26,319 nucleotides of DNA from an uncultured Methanomicrobiaceae archaeon (GTDB taxonomy: Archaea > Halobacteriota > Methanomicrobia > Methanomicrobiales > Methanoculleaceae): positions 1 through 26,319 of the forward strand of contig CAWGXH010000006.1 in assembly GCA_963826525.1 (NCBI GenBank). Reading direction: 5' to 3'. This document shows, in pieces, positions 3,739 to 13,072 of this stretch. The first letter of the stretch is position 1, and every line of letters starts with the position of its first letter. Position numbers and translations under genes: made by a program. A model generated the notes under the pieces. The model had not been told where the DNA came from. It did not search any database and was given only the letters and a program-made list of their open reading frames with translations.

Positions 3739-4367
3739 ATGAAGCTCGTCGCCTCCATTCACGATCCCGATACGCTTGACCTGGCCGTTTCAGCAGGTGT
3801 GAACTTCATCGAGCTCCGCCTGGACCTGATTGAAGGCGACCTTGCGGATACCGTCGAACTGATACGGGCGCGAACCATCATTCCAATAATCGCGACGCTT
3901 CGAAGCAGAGAGGAAGGGGGGCGGTTCACCGGGAACGCGGATGCGTGGTTCGAGATTGTGGGGCCGCTCATCAGGCATGTCGATATCGTCGACGTGGAGA
4001 TGAGATACCGGGAGCATGCGCCTGACATAAAAACACACGGCGTGCAGATCATCGCTTCGCATCACCGCCCGGAGATGCCGGAGATCCGATCTCGACGCAC
4101 TCGTGAGCGACCTGCGGTCGTTCGGCGATATCCCGAAGATCGCCGTCAGCCCAAAATCGCAAGCCGACGTGCTCGCGCTCCTTGCATTCACTGCTGAAGC
4201 GCAAAAACCGATCTGCGTCAGCATCGTGGGGGACGAGTACCGCTATACCCGTGCCCTCCTCCCGCTCTTCGGTTCGGAGTTAGCCTACTGCCACGCCGGA
4301 ACCCCGACGGCGAAGGGGCAGTGACCACGTCGAGGAACTCAAGCAACTCCTCGAGATGCTCCAGTAA
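3739..4367 (+). CDS. aroD: Type I 3-dehydroquinate dehydratase (frameshifts near 4080 and 4322)
   Basis: [23 protein letters not shown] and IIASHH, then DIPKIAV and TAKGQ(Y)[13 protein letters not shown] with TAA at 4365-4367. Adjacent to the aro cluster. Confidence 0.88.
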
Positions 4368-4369
4368 AC

Positions 4370-5377
4370 TCACTCTTTTCTCACGGCGAAACCGCGGTAC
4401 TTCTCCTGCTCGAGGAGAGCGTCGAGGATCACGAGCGCCAGCATGCACTCCGCGACCGGCACGACCCGCACCGCGATGCAGGGGTCGTGGCGGCCATGTA
4501 TCCGTATCCGCCGCTCATTTCCAGCCGTATCGATCGTCGTCTGCTCTTTTTCGATCGAGGGCGTGGGCTTGACGGCGATCCTGGCCACGATCGGCTGACC
4601 GGTGCTGATCCCGCCGAGGATGCCGCCGGCGTTATTGCCAGCGAATCCTTCGGGGGTGATCGGGTCGTTATTCTCGCTCCCGCGCATCCGTGCTACGGCG
4701 AAACCGGCTCCGATTTCGACGCCCTTCACCGCACCGATACCCATCAGGGCGGCGGCGATCATTGCGTCGAGTTTCCCGAAGACCGGGTCGCCGAGCCCCG
4801 ACGGACACCCGGAGACGACGACCTCCACGATCCCGCCGACGGAGTCGCCCTCCTGCCGTGCGGTGCGGATCGCCTCTTCCATTCCCTCGAGGGTGGTCTC
4901 TCCGCCGATCTCACAGATCCGCCCGGCAACACCGATGCCGTAGCGCTCGAGGCACTTCGCCGCAACCGCGCCTGCCGCGACGCGGGAGAGCGTCTCCCGG
5001 CCGGAACTCCGCCCGCCTCCACGGTGGTCGCGGATACCGTACTTCGCGGCATACGAGTAGTCGGCGTGACCGGGACGGAAGATGTCGCGGAGTGCATCGT
5101 AGTCGCCGGACTCCTGATTCCGGTTATAGACGACAAGAGCGATCGGCGTCCCGGTCGTGACGCCCTCGAAGGTGCCGGAGAGGATCTCGATCCTGTCCGC
5201 CTCTCTGCGGGGAGAGACGAGGCTGCTCGTGCCCGGCCTCCTCCTGTCGAGGTAGGGCTGGATATCCGCCTCGGTCAGCGCGATACCGGGAGGGCAGCCG
5301 TCGATGACGGCTCCGAGCGCCTTTCCATGGCTCTCTCCGAATGTCGTGACCCGAAAGTTTCTCCCAAACGTATTCAT
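4370..5377 (-). CDS. aroC: Chorismate synthase
   Basis: [55 protein letters not shown] overlap with the upstream gene. Confidence 0.97.
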
Positions 5378-6700
5378 TGCATCATCTCCCGCACGCTTTC
5401 TGCCTCCACGGCGATGCCGGTGATCAGGCGGAACTGCCAGGCGGCCTGGTGGACGAACATCTCGGTGCCGGGGATCGCCTCGCAGCCGGCAAGCCGCGCC
5501 TCCCGGATGAGTTTCGTCTCGGGGGGCGTGTAGATGAGGTCGAAGACGGTCATCCCCCGCTCGAGCCGGTCCGCCGGAAGAGGGCTCCGCCCCGCATCTT
5601 CCATCCCGACCGAGGTCGTATTGACGACGACGTCGGCGTCTCCTCCCCGGAAGTCGTCGAGCCCTCCCCACGCGCACCCGAACCGCTCCGCAAGGAGGCG
5701 GGCTCTCGAGGGAGTCCGGTTCAGCACGGTCACCGCCATATCGAGGTCGCGGAGTGCATAGACCGTCGCCGCCGCCGCACCTCCCGCACCGAGCACGACC
5801 GCCCGTGCTCCCCGCCGGTGCTCGAGCGGAATCTTCACCCCGAGCCAGTCGGTATTGAACCCATGCAGCCTTCCGCCGCACTGCACGACCGTATTTACCG
5901 CGCCGATGGCGGCCGCGTCCGCGTCGACCTCGTCCAGGAACGGGATGATATCCTGCTTGAACGGAATGGTGACGGAGAGTCCCCTGAACGTCGAGGGCGC
6001 GTGCGAGCCTGACGATGGGTTCTATTGCGGGCCACTCGAACCTCGTGTAATAGTAGTGTAAACCGTAGTGCTCAAAGAGCCTGTTGTAGAGAGCGGGGCT
6101 CCTGCTGTGCGAGCAGGGGTTGCCGGCGATGCCGCAGATCCGGATCTTCGGGTCGCGCTTTCGCACCGCCGCAAGATCATCGGGAACAAGGAGGTCGTCG
6201 GGCAGCGCCGTGAGCAGGGCTGCAATCTGTTCGACGGTCTCCTCCACGCTGCGCGAGCCGGTATCGATGCAGACGTCGGCACTACTCATGTAGGCAACCC
6301 GTCTCTGCCCGAGCATCTCCCGTATCTCGTCCCGAAGCGGGAGGGACGTGAGCCCCGGCCGGTCGCTGCCCCGGATACGCTCCTCGATGACCGCGGGGTC
6401 TGCCGTTAGCAGAATGACCGTCCCGTTCCGGCGAAGGCTCTCCACGTTTGCCGGGTCGATGACCGCCCCGCCGCCGGTGCTGACGACACCGTCACAGTCC
6501 CGGAGCGACGCGATAACCTCCCGCTCGAGACGCCGGAACGCCGCTTCGCCCCACCGCTCAAAGATCGCCGGGATGGCGATGCCCGCCTTCTCCTCGATTA
6601 CAGCGTCGGTATCGACAAACGGAAGACCGAAGCGGCCGGCAAGCCGTCGTCCGACGGCCGTCTTTCCGGTGCCCCGAAAACCGACGAGGACGATCTTCAT
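5374..6700 (-). CDS. aroK-aroE: Shikimate kinase (bacterial P-loop type) fused to shikimate dehydrogenase (frameshift near 5980)
   Basis: N-terminal [31 protein letters not shown] continues in frame into [10 protein letters not shown]. After the shift come SVTIPFK, GAVNT, NTDWLG, LGAGGAA, NRT, NTTSVGM, DLIYTP and QAAWQF. Confidence 0.9.
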
Positions 6701-7965
6701 AGCAGTCCCGCCTCTGTGAGGGCATCCCAGAACCCGGGGAACGACTTGCCGACGCACTCCGCATCCCGGATCGTCATTCCGCCGACCCCGAGGCCGAGGA
6801 CGGCGAAACTCATGGCGGTCCGGTGATCGTCGACCGGGTCGACGACCACGCCGTGGAGCGGGGCCGGGGTGATGGTGATCCGGTCGGTGCCGACCGAGAC
6901 ACTGGCTCCCATCCTCTGCAGGATCTCCGCCGTGATCCCGATCCGGTCGCTCTCCTTGTACTGCAGGTGCCCGACCCCGGTGATCGTCGTCGGCGTCGCT
7001 GCCGTGGCCGCAACGACCGCGAGCGTCTGCACCGTATCGGGGGCGGATGACATATCGATGGTGATGCCGGAGAGCTCGCCCTTCCGCGTGACGGTCACCG
7101 TATCGACCGATGACGCGACGAGACACCCCATCGCTTCGAGCGCGTCGAGGAACCGCCGGTCGCCCTGCACCGATGCGGGGCTTAAGTGGTTCACACGGAC
7201 GGTGCCGCCGCAGATTGCCGCCGCGGCAAAGAAGTAGGAGGCCGACGAGTAGTCGCCCTCGACGGTGTACTCCCTGCCGGTATAGCGAGTGCCGTGCCGC
7301 ACCCGGAAGCGGGTATACCCGTCACGTTCGACCCGTGCGCCGAACGCCTCCATGACGTCGACCGTCACGTCGAGGTACGACCGGGATGCGGGCATCTCAG
7401 GGATTTCGAGTTCGACATCCTCGTCGGCACAGGGAGCGGCCATCAGGATCGACGAGATGAACTGGCTGCTCATGCTCGCATCGACGACGGCAGTCCCGCC
7501 GGATAGCCGCCCCTCGACCCGGATCGGGGGAAAACCAGGTTTACCGAGGTAAACAGTCTCGCCGCCAAGGGCAAGGAGTGCCTCGACAAGCGGCCCGAGC
7601 GGCCGCTCCAGCATCCGCCGGTTCCCGGTGAGCACCACCGGACGCGGCGATACGAGGGCTATCGAGGAGAGGAGCCGGAGGCTCGTCCCTGAGTTGCCGA
7701 GATCGAGCGTGACCGGATCTCCGGTCGGGAGTTTCCCGCCGGTTCCGTCGACGATGATCTCGCTGCCCTGCCAGTCGACCGGAACACCGAGACTCCGGAG
7801 CGCCCGGGCGGTCAGCCGGGTATCGTCGGCATCGAGCGGGCGGCAGATCCGGCTCCGGCCCGAGGCGAGCGAGGCGGCGATCAGCGCCCGGTGCGTATAG
7901 CTCTTCGAGGGAGGTGCGGAGAACGTCAGGTCCACCGCAGGACTCCGGGGGATGGTTACGTCCAT
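6697..7965 (-). CDS. aroA: EPSP synthase (3-phosphoshikimate 1-carboxyvinyltransferase)
   Basis: [54 protein letters not shown]. Likely start is MDVTIP at 7965. Confidence 0.97.
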
Positions 7966-9578: not shown

Positions 9579-10565
9579 TCACTTCTCAAGGATCGTCTCC
9601 TTCACCGCGATCCCGAAGTGGCGGCCACCTTCCGTTGCAGCCCCGAGTATCCGGTCACCCTCTTTGAGGTCGACGACCGAGATCGCGCCGCCGTCCTCGC
9701 CCACGAGGCGTATCGTCTCCGCATTCTGGAGGATCAGGCTGACGCGGGCGCTGCCGGCCTTTGCCTCGACGAGGAGGAGCGGCCGGCGTTCGATCTTCAC
9801 CCTTCCGACCACCGCATCGGTCGTCCTGCCGTCGCTTTCCGCGACCGCGACGTGGTCTCCGACCTTCAGGTCGGCGAGGTAGGCCGTCTTCCCGCCCGGG
9901 AGCATGATGTAGGCATGGACGGCACCGGCATTGACGCGGAACGGCCGGGGAGCCACGTAGGGGTTCTCCAGCGTCTCCGGGTGCACGAGCAGGAAGGCCG
10001 AGGAGGTGTTGCCGACGAGCATCCCCTGTCCGTCCGCGAGGAGCGAACAGGTATCGACGCAGACCCTATCTCCCATCCCGACCGGCCGGATGCCGGTGAC
10101 GGTGAAGGGAATGAGATCGGTGCTCCCGCCGGAGGATGCGATCAGCGACGCAACCTCACGGACGACGGCCGGATCGCCGGTCTTCAGCAGAATCCCGGCG
10201 ACGCCACGCTCAAGGACGGTCAGTGCGAGTTCCGCCTCCGCGCGGTTCGTCACCGTCGCGATGATACGGTCGGACGCCGCGACCAGGTTCTCGAGCGGGA
10301 TCACCGTCCAGTCGCTGGTGCTGACGATCACGTATCCCTTCCGCGAAAGCCTGACCGCCTCCTCTTCGCTCTCCTTATCCTCGATCGCCACCTCGAAGAT
10401 ATCCTCTCCGGGAACGAGATCCCCATCGGGCGCAATGACCGTCGTCCGGGCAAGTTCACGGAGGTCATCAGCACGGCCGACCATCAGCGCATCCGCACCG
10501 CTCTCGATGGCGGTCGTGGCGAGGTCTTTATCCCACGGCCGGATATCGACCCAGAAGACCTTCAT
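9579..10565 (-). CDS. aroB': 3-dehydroquinate synthase type II (archaeal alternative pathway)
   Basis: MKVFWVD.., DWTVIPLENL, GDRVCVDTCS, RPFRVNAGAVHAY, KIERRPL, LQNAETIRL and GRHFG. In this assembly it is in frame with the upstream aldolase. Confidence 0.93.
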   Translation of the reverse strand: MKVFWVDIRPWDKDLATTAIESGADALMVGRADDLRELARTTVIAPDGDLVPGEDIFEVAIEDKESEEEAVRLSRKGYVIVSTSDWTVIPLENLVAASDRIIATVTNRAEAELALTVLERGVAGILLKTGDPAVVREVASLIASSGGSTDLIPFTVTGIRPVGMGDRVCVDTCSLLADGQGMLVGNTSSAFLLVHPETLENPYVAPRPFRVNAGAVHAYIMLPGGKTAYLADLKVGDHVAVAESDGRTTDAVVGRVKIERRPLLLVEAKAGSARVSLILQNAETIRLVGEDGGAISVVDLKEGDRILGAATEGGRHFGIAVKETILEK

Positions 10566-11348
10566 CCTTCCAGTCTCCAGCGCCCGGGCAGGGTCGGTTT
10601 CGTCATGCACTACCCGGCAGATCGCCCGGATGAACTGGCGCGGATTATCGCGCTGGAACGCGTTCCTGCCCATGCAGACGCCGGCGGATCCGGCCGCCAC
10701 GGCCTCCCCGAGGGTCGTCAGCGTCTCGATATCGCCGCCCTTCTCGCCGCCCGCGACCATCACGGGAACCGAGCATGCATCGGTGATCCGGCGGAACGAT
10801 GCCGCATCCCCGGTGTAGTTCGTCTTGATCAGGTCGGCGCCGAGTCCTTCCGCCACCCGGACACAGTGCCCGATCGCCTTCGGGGACGTGGGATCGATCC
10901 CTTCGCCGCGGGGGTAGATCATAATGAGCAGCGGCATTCCCCAGCAGTTGCACTCTTTCGATACCTGCCCCGCCGACTCGAGCATCCGTGATTCGTTCGG
11001 CGCCCCGAGATTGATGTGGATCGAGACCGCATCCGCACCGAGGGCGACCGCCTCCTCGACGGTGCAGACGAGCACTTTGTCGTTCGGGTCGGGGTTCATC
11101 GAGGTGCTCGCCGAGAGATGGACGATGAGCCCGATATCCCGCCCATGCTTCCGGTGGCCGCCCTTCACCATCCCCTTATGGAGGACGATGGCATTTGCAC
11201 CCGCTTCGCTGACCTCGGAGACAATCTCCGTCATGTTGCGGAGCCCCTCGATCTGTCCGAGCGTAAACCCGTGATCCATGGGGATGATCACCGATCGTCC
11301 CGTATTCCGGTTCATGATTCGTTCAAGACGTATCTCTTTTCCTATCAT
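10562..11348 (-). CDS. aroA': ADH synthase (class I DhnA-type aldolase, MJ0400/AroA' family), paralog 2
   Basis: MIGKEIRLERIMNRNTG, PMDHG, HLSASTS, ADAVSIHINLG, YPRG, GADLIKTNYTGD, AGG and GRNAFQ. The 3' end is uncertain: either a fusion to aroB' or an ATGA overlap. Confidence 0.88.
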
Positions 11349-11353
11349 CTCTT

Positions 11354-12145
11354 TCACGCCCTCAGGATCTCGATTGCTTCGTGTGCCGGTTTTCCTTCGT
11401 GTACGATGAGCGCCGCTGCCCTTATCAGTTTCTCCGGAGCGGGATGCTGGAACGCATTCCTCCCGATGGAGATGCCGGCAGCACCGCCCTCCATCGCCCC
11501 CTCGATCAGTTCGAGGATGGCCATATCGTCGGTCTTCGACCCGCCGGCGACGACCACCGGGACCGGGCACCCCCGCGTGACCTCGCGGAAACTGTCGGGG
11601 TCGCCGGTGTAGACGGTCTTGACGATATCGGCGCCGAGCTCCGCCGCCACCCGGGCGGCGAGTTTGACGTGTTCGACGTCGTGCTCGTCCGCGATCTTGG
11701 CACCGCGGGGGTACATCATCGCAAGCAGCGGCATCCCCCACTCCATGCACTCGATCGCCACCCGTCCGAGGTCTTCGAGCATCTTGGCCTCCGAGTTCGC
11801 ACCGACATTGATGTGCACCGAGACACCGTCCGCCCCCATTTTGAGGGCGTTCGTGACGGTATTGACGAGCACCTTATCGTTCGGGTCGGGTCCGACGGCG
11901 GTGCTCGCCGAGAGGTGGAGGATGAGCCCGACATCTCTGCCGTGCCGCCGGTGACCATGCAGGGCAAGCCCCATATGCCCGATCACCACGTTTGCCCCGC
12001 CCCCCGCCACGAGGTCGATGGTCTTTCCTAGATCTATCAGTCCCGGGATTGGCCCGACCGTTACACCGTGATCCATCGGTACGATGATGGTCTTTCCGGT
12101 ATTACGATCCATGATACGTTCCATGCGAATTTCTTTTCCTCTCAT
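11354..12145 (-). CDS. aroA': ADH synthase (AroA' family), paralog 1; first gene of the operon
   Basis: MRGKEIRMERIMDRNTG, PMDHG, HLSAST, GADIVKTVYTGD (Schiff-base Lys) and GRNAFQH. GAGGAG RBS upstream. Confidence 0.92.
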   Translation of the reverse strand: MRGKEIRMERIMDRNTGKTIIVPMDHGVTVGPIPGLIDLGKTIDLVAGGGANVVIGHMGLALHGHRRHGRDVGLILHLSASTAVGPDPNDKVLVNTVTNALKMGADGVSVHINVGANSEAKMLEDLGRVAIECMEWGMPLLAMMYPRGAKIADEHDVEHVKLAARVAAELGADIVKTVYTGDPDSFREVTRGCPVPVVVAGGSKTDDMAILELIEGAMEGGAAGISIGRNAFQHPAPEKLIRAAALIVHEGKPAHEAIEILRA

Positions 12146-12196
12146 AATCAGAACTCCTCATCCGGCACGTCAGCGATTCTGGTGTAGAATTACGCT

Positions 12197-12373
12197 TCAG
12201 TTCCAGGGATAATAACTAAAAGTGCCAAAAAAGCGGAAATAACTGCAAATAGGCAGGCACCATCCGGTAGTGGAGCGAACCTGCGGAAGAAGTGCGTTGT
12301 TCAGGCCTGCACGGCGGATGGATCCTTCGCTACCAGTGATAAAAGCATTCACCGGCGAAAAAACATTCACCAC
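12197..12373 (-). CDS. Putative aromatic-rich leader peptide of the aro operon (58 aa, GTG start)
   Basis: Manual translation gives (M)VNVFSPVNAFITGSEGSIRRAGLNNALLPQVRSTTGWCLPICSYFRFFGTFSYYPWN*. Nine of the last 21 residues are F/Y/W. It stops 51 nt before aroA'. Confidence 0.45.
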   Translation of the reverse strand: MVNVFSPVNAFITGSEGSIRRAGLNNALLPQVRSTTGWCLPICSYFRFFGTFSYYPWN

Positions 12374-12377
12374 GCAT
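12330..12377 (-). CDS. Alternative leaderless uORF MRGECFFAGECFYHW
   Basis: The ATG lies about 25 nt downstream of the TATA box, near the expected TSS. Five of 15 residues are aromatic. Confidence 0.35.
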   Translation of the reverse strand: MRGECFFAGECFYHW

Positions 12378-12401
12378 TGGTACTATCATATTTCGTCCAT
12401 C

Positions 12402-12410
12402 TATAAAAAG
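12402..12410 (-). promoter_or_regulatory. Putative TATA box of the aro operon
   Basis: The minus strand reads CTTTTTATA(G). It is the best TATA match between aMBF1 and aroA' and implies a ~230-nt 5' leader. Confidence 0.6.
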
Positions 12411-12517
12411 GTAAGCACGCAGGATGAGAAATGGCGAGGGGAAAAGGGACACAACCCTTTCCCGATAACGATCGACGCTACTCCATTGTTTCCGGAAAAA
12501 GACTCTGTTTCTGCCGG

Positions 12518-13015
12518 TTACTTCCGGATCTTCTTAAAGGAGATGACATCCCCGACGGTCGTCGTCATTCTGCCGCCGCCGCGGGACTCGGTCTCGTCGG
12601 CAGCGGAGTCGATCAACTTGATGCCGAGCGCCTGCTCGAGCTTTTTCCGAACGGCGTCCTCCGGAATGAGATCGCCCTTCTCGATCTTCTTGATCAGGAT
12701 CTCACGCTCTTTCGTCGCGTGAGCAAGATCCAGTGTAGACCATCCCTTCTCCTCCCGGGCAGCGCGAATCCGCTCGCGGTAGTCGTCGACGATATCGCCC
12801 TCGATCAGGTCGAAGACATCCCTCGGCCTTCTCCGGGGCTGCGGCGTCGAGACCGCCGGTGTTCCCGGCCTTCGCACAGGAGCACCGCCTCGCCGTGCTT
12901 GCTGGACTTCCTTACCGTATTTTGCACATTTGATGCATACACAGAGTTCTGCACCTTCAACCTGGACTGTCTTTGACGGTCCGTGGATAGGAGCGCCGCA
13001 TAATTCACATTGCAT
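12518..13015 (-). CDS. mbf1: Archaeal multiprotein bridging factor aMBF1 (Zn ribbon + HTH)
   Basis: [23 protein letters not shown] Zn ribbon, [26 protein letters not shown], and a C-terminal TVGD motif. Divergent from pan. Confidence 0.93.
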
Positions 13016-13072
13016 GATTCTCGCAAAGAACTTTATATCCATTTTACCCTATATAATTATTCGAGGAGACCT
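13016..13072. promoter_or_regulatory. Compact divergent promoter region mbf1/pan
   Basis: 57-bp AT-rich spacer with CTTTATAT (13031-13038) and TATATAAT (13050-13057), and a GAGGAG RBS before pan. Confidence 0.6.

Follow-up and report, generated by a model that had tools for sequence, protein, structure and literature searches.

A conserved aromatic leader reading frame ahead of the aro operon of Methanomicrobiales and a candidate +1 recoding site within it

Leader-peptide attenuation is a textbook bacterial mechanism and depends on translation following closely behind transcription. In E. coli pheL-pheA, as in trpL, hisL, thrL and leuL, a short open reading frame (ORF) enriched in codons for the end product stands ahead of a biosynthetic operon, and a structured spacer separates it from the first gene. 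Here, we describe a similar layout in an archaeon. The window, a stretch of 26,319 nucleotides (nt) from an uncultured Methanomicrobiaceae archaeon (GenBank assembly GCA_963826525.1, contig CAWGXH010000006.1), carries on its minus strand an ORF that ends in a cluster of Phe, Tyr and Trp (F/Y/W) codons and lies between a promoter and aroA', the first gene of an operon for aromatic amino acid biosynthesis. A preliminary description of this DNA had proposed that the ORF is an attenuator and knew of no characterised aro leader of this type in methanogens; a search of the open-access literature, with subscription journals and supplements outside it, likewise found no leader-peptide attenuator in any archaeon. 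We propose, with a probability of about 0.6, that the element is a ribosome-sensed leader peptide for the aro operon (aroA'-aroB'-tyrA-pheA-EPSP synthase and more), present throughout the Methanomicrobiales, and that ribosomes would enter it by a +1 shift at a hungry Phe codon. That it is a translated regulatory leader appears very probable from its sequence and that of its relatives. What was first observed is real, and comparison with relatives gives good support to the idea of a leader peptide. The start codon and the mechanism first suggested for it need revising.

Other described systems resemble parts of this element. In prfB (RF2) and in the antizyme genes, two frames overlap, the downstream one lies at +1, the P-site codon is of the YUU-U type, a Shine-Dalgarno (SD)-like run lies upstream, some lineages have in-frame versions of the gene, and the rate of decoding in the A site reports the sensed molecule; the geometry of the shift site described below resembles that of prfB. 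The role of antizyme as a sensor acting through a frameshift is treated in section 7 of a 2021 review (PMC8211752). In attenuation of the ermC and cat type, and in tnaC, arrest of the ribosome near the leader's end, beside a hairpin or a factor-entry site, alters expression of the next gene, as we propose here. Recoding of an archaeal cellular gene is described for fucA1 of Saccharolobus solfataricus, an enzyme gene with a -1 frameshift on A-AAA-AAT that this review gives as the only -1 programmed ribosomal frameshift reported in Archaea, with relatives whose gene is in frame owing to a one-base difference in the homopolymer run (PMC8211752). A suspected archaeal frameshift in the Mg chelatase is also mentioned there (PMC8211752).

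The aromatic ORF, which we call frame B, ends 51 nt ahead of aroA' in the window, and nine of its last 21 residues (WCLPICSYFRFFGTFSYYPWN) are F/Y/W. The TATA box, the ORF of 58 codons, its aromatic residues and the T6 tract among them all lie where the preliminary description had placed them (Table 1). To rank this ORF within the genome, six-frame ORFs of at least 40 codons were collected from the three main contigs of the same assembly; at least seven F/Y/W codons among the last 15 were found in 3 of 40,471 ORFs, this leader being one of the three. The first comparison comprised 42 sequences. Three came from the assembly of the window (the window itself and two other copies) and 39 from relatives belonging to six families. 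All 42 had an ORF ending 32-206 nt ahead of aroA', with 4-11 (median 7) F/Y/W codons among its last 15. The mean over these sequences was 7.0 in the ORF frame, while the two remaining forward frames gave 1.6 and 2.6 and no reverse frame more than 1.0; shuffling the same 45 nt with dinucleotides preserved gave 3.3. The probability that a shuffled leader is open was 0.03-0.32 per sequence, a figure to be read singly, since the relatives are not independent and products of such probabilities overstate the case. The leader ORF with its aromatic tail is thus real and beyond chance. A frame rich in end-product codons between promoter and aroA' is what the preliminary description would have predicted for relatives, and it is conserved across the order, with variation between TTT and TTC and between TAT and TAC, and above shuffled controls. 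As in ribosome-mediated attenuators of the trpL/pheL class, a short leader ORF stands directly ahead of an operon for amino acid biosynthesis, favours the codons of that pathway's end products and is conserved in relatives.

An ortholog of aroA' was present in 40 of the 41 genomes searched, the exception (G004, 81% complete) giving a weak match only. The survey was later widened to families f2, f4 and f6, and 92 distinct Methanomicrobiales loci, all with an aromatic-tail ORF ahead of aroA', were classified; in addition, the aromatic leader ORF was present in 10 of 10 loci of Methanospirillum. At 17 aroA' loci taken from the phylum's other classes, no aromatic-tail ORF was detected within 450 nt upstream, and within 1.5 kb of the same loci, where the operon position of aroA' was unchecked, six weak matches on the same strand versus 16 on the opposite strand included nothing similar. 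Short aromatic-rich leader ORFs also occur upstream of bacterial aroA' homologues, in at least 10 of the 30 examined, and are probably classical attenuators of the same pathway. The bacteria concerned (Desulfobacterales, Syntrophobacteraceae and others) have an archaeal-type ADH synthase with 57-69% identity, and at their loci L182-L202, ORFs of 24-33 codons packed with F/Y/W are often present 130-275 nt upstream (e.g., L185 and L201).

The preliminary description had started the leader at GTG 12373. In the relatives, a TATA-like box stands 22-27 nt (mode 24) ahead of an invariant ATG, and the usual archaeal distance from TATA box to transcription start site (TSS) would place the TSS at, or 1-2 nt before, ATG 12377, in agreement with the start near 12380 suggested earlier; with the TSS there, the mRNA is predicted to be leaderless. 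This ATG opens a different frame, frame A, which lies at -1 relative to the aromatic ORF (frame B is +1 to frame A) and closes after 15 codons, the length of the pheL leader. Counts of differences by codon position, indecisive alone, had pointed to frame B as the coding frame of the conserved 5' block that follows the ATG, a conclusion that was overturned by the ratio of nonsynonymous to synonymous differences per site (pN/pS). Over all pairs of 26 unique blocks, pN/pS was 0.47 in frame A versus 1.13 in frame B and 1.45 in frame C, so that the coding signature over the first 14 codons is that of frame A; within genus g6 it was 0.27 in frame A, while frame B had zero synonymous differences (pS 0). 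Hence, GTG 12373 is probably the wrong start. Beyond the frame-A stop, frame B of the window has no ATG, GTG or TTG, and its GTGs lie only 4, 7 and 25 nt after the ATG; therefore, ribosomes must enter frame B within the first 45 nt.

The relation between the ATG and the tail was examined in all 92 loci, which were classified by an anchor that required an ATG, limited the choice of the two codons after it, and placed a TATA-like box 20-28 nt upstream; L070, whose upstream flank is too short, and L118, whose ORF is broken, were left out of this set. Where the 5' block with its T-run (YUU-UUY) is present, the tail lies at +1 to the ATG (68/68 loci), and where it is absent, the ATG is in frame with the tail (24/24); a tail at +2 was found in none of the 92. 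Among named records, the +1 form occurs in Methanoculleus, Methanofollis, Methanolinea, Methanoregula with other Methanoregulaceae, Methanocalculus and two metagenome-assembled genomes named to family level, and an in-frame form in Methanospirillum. Overall, in-frame forms were found in Methanospirillum and in at least five genera of three families. The in-frame peptides begin with M-x-G-E/D, as frame A does, and continue as frame B does in relatives (by visual judgement of colinearity, for example L068 and L073 with frame B of L070, and L107 and L109 with frame B of L099), as expected from a +1 shift inside the T-run.

At the putative shift site, frame A reads YTT and then TTY in 68 of 68 +1-form loci. 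The candidate P-site codon is TTT in 59 loci and CTT in nine, the A-site codon is always Phe (TTC in 61, TTT in seven), and the codon that would be read after the shift is TCG in 58. An SD-like run of the GGTGA type ends 4 nt upstream of the site and matches, as its complement, the 3' end of the 16S rRNA of this organism (...GGATCACCTCCT). The locus therefore resembles +1 sites of the prfB/antizyme type in having an upstream ORF with a start codon and a downstream +1 ORF without a usable start of its own, a conserved slippery site at which the P-site tRNA could re-pair at +1 ahead of a Phe codon of putatively limiting decoding, and in-frame homologues (24 loci, all lacking the T-run block) that run colinear to the trans-frame product predicted here. 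All sequence-level tests that were applied for such a site gave the result expected of one, the shift itself being predicted. The conserved anatomy, the frame relations and the codon statistics can be seen in the sequences themselves, and we think it somewhat better than even that a +1 recoding event is needed to read the leader in most lineages.

The alternative that survives best involves no recoding. The long ORF would be translated from a GTG of its own (12373 or 12370), the mini-ORF at the ATG would be a second leader peptide or untranslated, and stalling in the tail, and perhaps in the mini-ORF, would regulate the operon. The GTG at the second position is indeed kept in almost all +1-form loci (it is ATG in L027), the frame-B residues V-F-S-P-V-N are conserved with some synonymous changes (TCG/TCC/TCA and CCG/CCA/CCC), and gene callers have predicted proteins from such frames, 21 of which, 46-81 amino acids long and annotated as hypothetical, were retrieved with a profile built from 35 leaders. 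However, the GTG would lie 5-8 nt from the 5' end without an SD sequence, and since leaderless initiation uses the terminal codon, a GTG that is merely close to the end is poorly placed. The pN/pS of frame B in the block and its lack of synonymous differences within g6 also disagree with translation from there, and this alternative leaves unexplained both the invariance of an out-of-frame ATG and the exact in-frame position of the ATG in lineages without the block (24/24, none at +2). We therefore regard it as improbable. Slippage of RNA polymerase on the T-run would give the same product as a ribosomal shift, but the nine CTT forms, with a run of just four T, make it less plausible there.

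The way in which the long ORF has evolved bears on whether its product matters. In 12 equal-length leaders of one genus, the middle of the ORF had a pN/pS of 0.73 with a pS of 0.27, compared with a pN/pS of 0.05 and a pS of 0.34 for aroA', and it keeps its frame through 3-nt indels. The leader ORF is 41-64 codons long across relatives, and its tail conserves F/Y/W composition rather than sequence. Selection thus seems to hold the frame and the aromatic tail while leaving the peptide sequence almost unconstrained, as would be expected of a leader peptide. The codons of the 42 leaders are biased toward T-ending forms, with 227 TTT versus 52 TTC for Phe (81% TTT) and 109 TAT versus six TAC for Tyr (95% TAT), whereas the long ORFs of the genome have 27% and 32% T-ending codons, respectively. 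No homologue was retrieved in a protein search with the window peptide as sole query, and the frame-B peptide matched no Pfam family. Conservation of the N-terminal residues, retention of the ORF across the order and the hypothetical proteins in public protein sets could be taken to indicate a small functional protein, such as a micropeptide, hydrophobic or aromatic, with an aro enzyme or a membrane as its target and co-transcribed with the operon without being a sensor, but its middle would then be near-neutral, its length free to vary, its tail selected for composition alone, its family absent from Pfam, and its codons the rare wobble-decoded ones, the opposite of what serves efficient expression. 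We consider such a protein very improbable.

The 5' block comprises two 18-nt tandem units and is unique to the aro locus within this genome. A 20-mer from it was found, allowing up to three mismatches, in 270 of 401 genomes of the class, with exact copies in five families, whereas the reversed control pattern gave sporadic matches only. In the third frame of the block (12336-12371, minus strand), each 18-nt unit has a GGTGA immediately followed by an ATG, opening ORFs of five codons (first unit) and 15 codons (second unit). A 20-mer identical across five families, and a tandem repeat at +5 to +42, which is a typical position for archaeal repressors, could suggest that the block is a DNA operator just past the start site or, as each unit is able to form a small hairpin, a riboswitch-like RNA aptamer, with the reading frames secondary. 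The uniqueness of the block means that such an operator would have no regulon, no Rfam family matches it, no compensatory pairs were found, and neither the open frame and aromatic tail 100-170 nt downstream nor the strict co-occurrence of the block with the +1 offset would be explained; the chance that it replaces the leader mechanism is slim, and it could coexist with it. The remaining alternative, also raised as a caveat in the preliminary description, is that T-rich intergenic DNA with promoter or terminator signals happens to read as aromatic residues, and although the tails are 31-58% T and archaeal terminators are T-rich, it can practically be discarded given the frame-specific excess above dinucleotide shuffles, the 31 TGG codons in the 42 leaders, the open frame kept in all lineages and the rank of the ORF in its genome.

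Downstream of the leader, a hairpin follows directly on the stop codon. Across relatives, a hairpin starts no more than 6 nt from the leader stop in 88 of 92 loci, versus 68-82 in 15 shuffled sets, and the mean minimum free energy of the spacer was -20.2 kcal/mol versus -15.5 to -16.6 in shuffles. Aromatic codons reach to within 1-5 codons of the leader stop. Given the size of the ribosome footprint, a ribosome stalled there can overlap the 5' arm of the hairpin, as in ermC-type leaders; on the last aromatic codons it would overlap and open the hairpin and cover the U-rich tail, and neither effect would follow if the ribosome had departed or had not come so far. In 18 sequences, RNAalifold predicted 39 pairs, four of them with compensatory changes, and no clear alternative pairing, alternative folds not having been searched systematically. 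The hairpin (12196-12172) is not followed by the U run that would be expected of an intrinsic terminator. In genera g16 and g19, from two families (L098, L111, L113 and relatives), a long hairpin with the arms CUGCACCAG and CUGGUGCAG comes right after the stop of ...FWFRQ, and an A/U-rich spacer of 120-230 nt precedes aroA', making these leaders a distinct sub-type.

How the position of the ribosome is read out could involve melting of the hairpin, shielding of U-rich RNA from oligo-U/FttA termination, or protection of the mRNA. Termination (oligo-U, FttA/aCPSF1), translation of aroA' and mRNA decay are thus all candidates, and any one of them taken singly is doubtful. Sequestration of the aroA' SD as a general read-out was rejected as unsupported, since shuffled spacers pair the SD more often than real ones. 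In several lineages (g6, L024, L027 and L030), there are anti-SD:SD helices, with the aroA' SD in the 3' arm and lineage-specific complementary extensions.

From these features, we infer where transcription starts, how the frame would shift, where ribosomes would stall and in which direction control would run. Transcription would begin about 24 nt past the TATA box, at or 1-2 nt before ATG 12377, and leaderless translation would proceed in frame A. When Phe-tRNA is ample, the ribosome would terminate at the frame-A stop after 15 codons, leaving about 185 nt of U-rich leader and the hairpin untranslated, and the operon would stay low. When Phe-tRNA is short, the ribosome would wait for a Phe codon in its A site to be decoded, while UUU (or CUU) occupies the P site, and could slip +1 into the long frame, where a second slowing on the wobble-decoded F/Y/W codons of the tail, beside the post-stop hairpin, would raise expression of aroA'. 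Lineages whose ATG shares the frame of the tail would depend solely on that tail. In its fullest form, which we hold tentatively and at somewhat less than even odds, the element would be a two-stage sensor of aromatic tRNA charging. A prfB-like programmed +1 shift, made on a leaderless mRNA where a Phe codon is hungry, would determine if translation continues, and a ribosome then parked on the tail, over U-rich RNA and the hairpin beside it, would block premature oligo-U/FttA termination.

Compared with the systems outlined above, the element would work like a leader of the pheL/trpL type but departs from that family in structure. It is archaeal, its mRNA is predicted to be leaderless, its aromatic codons are at the C-terminal end of an ORF of 41-64 codons, no terminator of hairpin plus U-tract was found, and the folds computed gave no clear antiterminator pairing. 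In E. coli pheL itself, +1 frameshifting has been recorded and, in the account concerned, judged incidental (PMC5009743); that shift is at the last codon (CCC_UGA), whereas here the offset is conserved and a shift would be needed to reach the tail. Unlike prfB and antizyme, which respond to release factor and polyamines, the leader is proposed to sense charged tRNA-Phe at a sense codon, its product would be a leader peptide rather than a regulated protein, and the shift, in an archaeon, is predicted from sequence. The trigger would be hungry codons rather than a drug or free Trp as in ermC, cat and tnaC, SD sequestration is not above chance, and the archaeal counterpart of Rho here would be FttA/aCPSF1. 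It would share with fucA1 the recoding of an archaeal cellular gene that has in-frame relatives, but the fucA1 shift is in the -1 direction and has no known sensing role.

Several observations weigh against the proposed leader mechanism. The trp operon of the same genome (C4, ~801300-801447; a trpB2-like gene, then trpE) has no Trp-rich leader. Two loci depart from the pattern, L118 (G197), in which the leader ORF is broken by two in-frame stops, and L164, in which the aromatic tail is shifted out of frame beside a T-run; these could reflect decay of the element or homopolymer errors in long-read assemblies. Some low-frequency substitutions in the block are synonymous in frame B and not in frame A. 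The identity of the 20-mer across five families exceeds the needs of a peptide and could be explained by a protein-binding or RNA element; RNAalifold on the first 80 nt of 19 representatives found one 6-bp hairpin and no compensatory pairs, and a structured 5' RNA domain was rejected for lack of any compensatory change. The aroA' SD was paired with a probability above 0.5 in 60 of the 92 loci, fewer than in any of 15 shuffled sets (68-82), and in the window's own genus the hairpin does not reach that SD, so that the altered access to the aroA' ribosome binding site envisaged in the preliminary description gains no support. No bacterial-type terminator was found on the minus strand between 11900 and 12800. 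The U-tract that had been noted at the aromatic codons is present in the window as T6 and is not conserved, a run of T5 or more near the tail being found in only 48 of 92 loci, and the idea that a ribosome masks a U-rich termination site gains no support. Finally, contigs from two metatranscriptome runs (6-7% of words) covered only 11800-11970 and 12502-12700, with 85-99% likeness, and represent coding parts of relatives.

An order-wide leader ahead of a defined operon offers a test system for the coupling of translation to transcription, for regulated termination by oligo-U and FttA/aCPSF1, and for leaderless initiation. Functional evidence that archaea couple transcription and translation is described as still scarce in a 2025 perspective (PMC13681488). 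A programmed +1 shift at a Phe codon, if true, would be a new logic for sensing amino acid supply and would extend archaeal cellular recoding beyond the single -1 case given in the 2021 review (PMC8211752). Should the two-stage sensor prove true, frameshift attenuators that sense amino acids would gain their first example and the cellular genes of archaea their first conserved +1 recoding site, and the leader would report naturally on how transcription and translation are coupled in Archaea. The leader also accounts for a long, conserved and unannotated intergenic region, and it marks small ORFs that annotation pipelines miss or call hypothetical.

Table 1. Features of the aro leader region and its flanking genes, in window coordinates.
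Feature	Position	Strand	Basis
aMBF1 gene upstream of the leader, stop 12520-12518	12518-13042	minus	TIGR00270
T5 tract just past aMBF1	12496-12500	minus	Read in sequence
TATA box TTTTTATA, promoter of the aro operon	12402-12409	minus	Read in sequence
Invariant ATG, proposed true leader start	12375-12377	minus	Conserved in every aligned locus; next three bases vary
Frame-A mini-ORF, 15 codons (MRGECFFAGECFYHW), and TAG stop 12332-12330	12330-12377	minus	Opened by ATG 12377
Frame-B ORF, 58 codons from GTG 12373, stop TGA 12199-12197	12197-12373	minus	Sequence reading, ORF list
5' block, two 18-nt tandem units, GGTGAATGTTTTTTCGCC and GGTGAATGCTTTTATCAC	12336-12371	minus	Conserved in relatives
Putative +1 shift site T TTT TTC (P-site TTT, A-site Phe TTC, +1 codon TCG)	12357-12363	minus	Shift inferred
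Aromatic tail, last 15 codons SYFRFFGTFSYYPWN, 8 F/Y/W, with T6 tract 12232-12227	12200-12244	minus	Sequence reading
Hairpin directly after leader stop (AGCG-UA-AUUCU-loop-AGAAU-CGCU)	12172-12196	minus	Folding
SD-like GAGGAG of aroA'	12154-12159	minus	Read in sequence; pairing probability 0.26 in the window
aroA' (ADH synthase), operon gene 1	11354-12145	minus	Pfam DeoC; NCBIfam TIGR01949, 336.9 bits

The intergenic region between aMBF1 and aroA' is 372 nt long, and the aroA' ATG at 12145 lies 257 nt past the TATA box on the minus strand. The T5 tract behind aMBF1 is likely the end of the upstream transcript, as a putative terminator. The score of aroA' passes the cut-off of TIGR01949, the ADH synthase equivalog (299.45 bits). 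3' of aroA', the first frame joins DHQ synthase II to another ADH synthase paralog, and the genes that follow encode prephenate dehydrogenase and prephenate dehydratase with an ACT domain; further downstream are EPSP synthase and then a frame with shikimate kinase, shikimate dehydrogenase and chorismate synthase domains. No match to Rfam was found in the whole window at the gathering threshold, and with E values up to 10 on 12100-12520 there were only two C/D-box matches (E 1.9 and 4.5); ARAGORN found no tRNA.

The second ADH synthase paralog (9579-11348, minus strand; TIGR01949, 343.9 bits) reads without a stop into DHQ synthase II (NF002627), giving a product of about 590 residues, and at the same place the other two copies in this assembly (C5 and C7) and most relatives have an open frame of 268-436 amino acids; the joint frame could be a natural fusion or an assembly difference. 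At 4370-7126 (minus strand), a single frame of 918 codons comprises shikimate kinase, the N-terminal domain of shikimate dehydrogenase and chorismate synthase, and a fragment of a type I dehydroquinase lies on the opposite strand at 3739-4197; this gene order looks unusual, or the contig may be partly mis-assembled. The assembly carries three near-identical mbf1-leader-aroA' loci, on C5 (198230-199244), C6 (the window) and C7 (11359-12371), which look like assembly redundancy or a strain mixture (contamination 5.3%). In the C7 copy, aroA' is frameshifted and one base is missing after the T6 run, which brings the ATG in frame with the tail; this form was kept out of the evidence. At the trp operon on C4, TGTATA/TGTACA-like palindromes, which we take to resemble the TrpY boxes of Methanothermobacter, adjoin the operon start.

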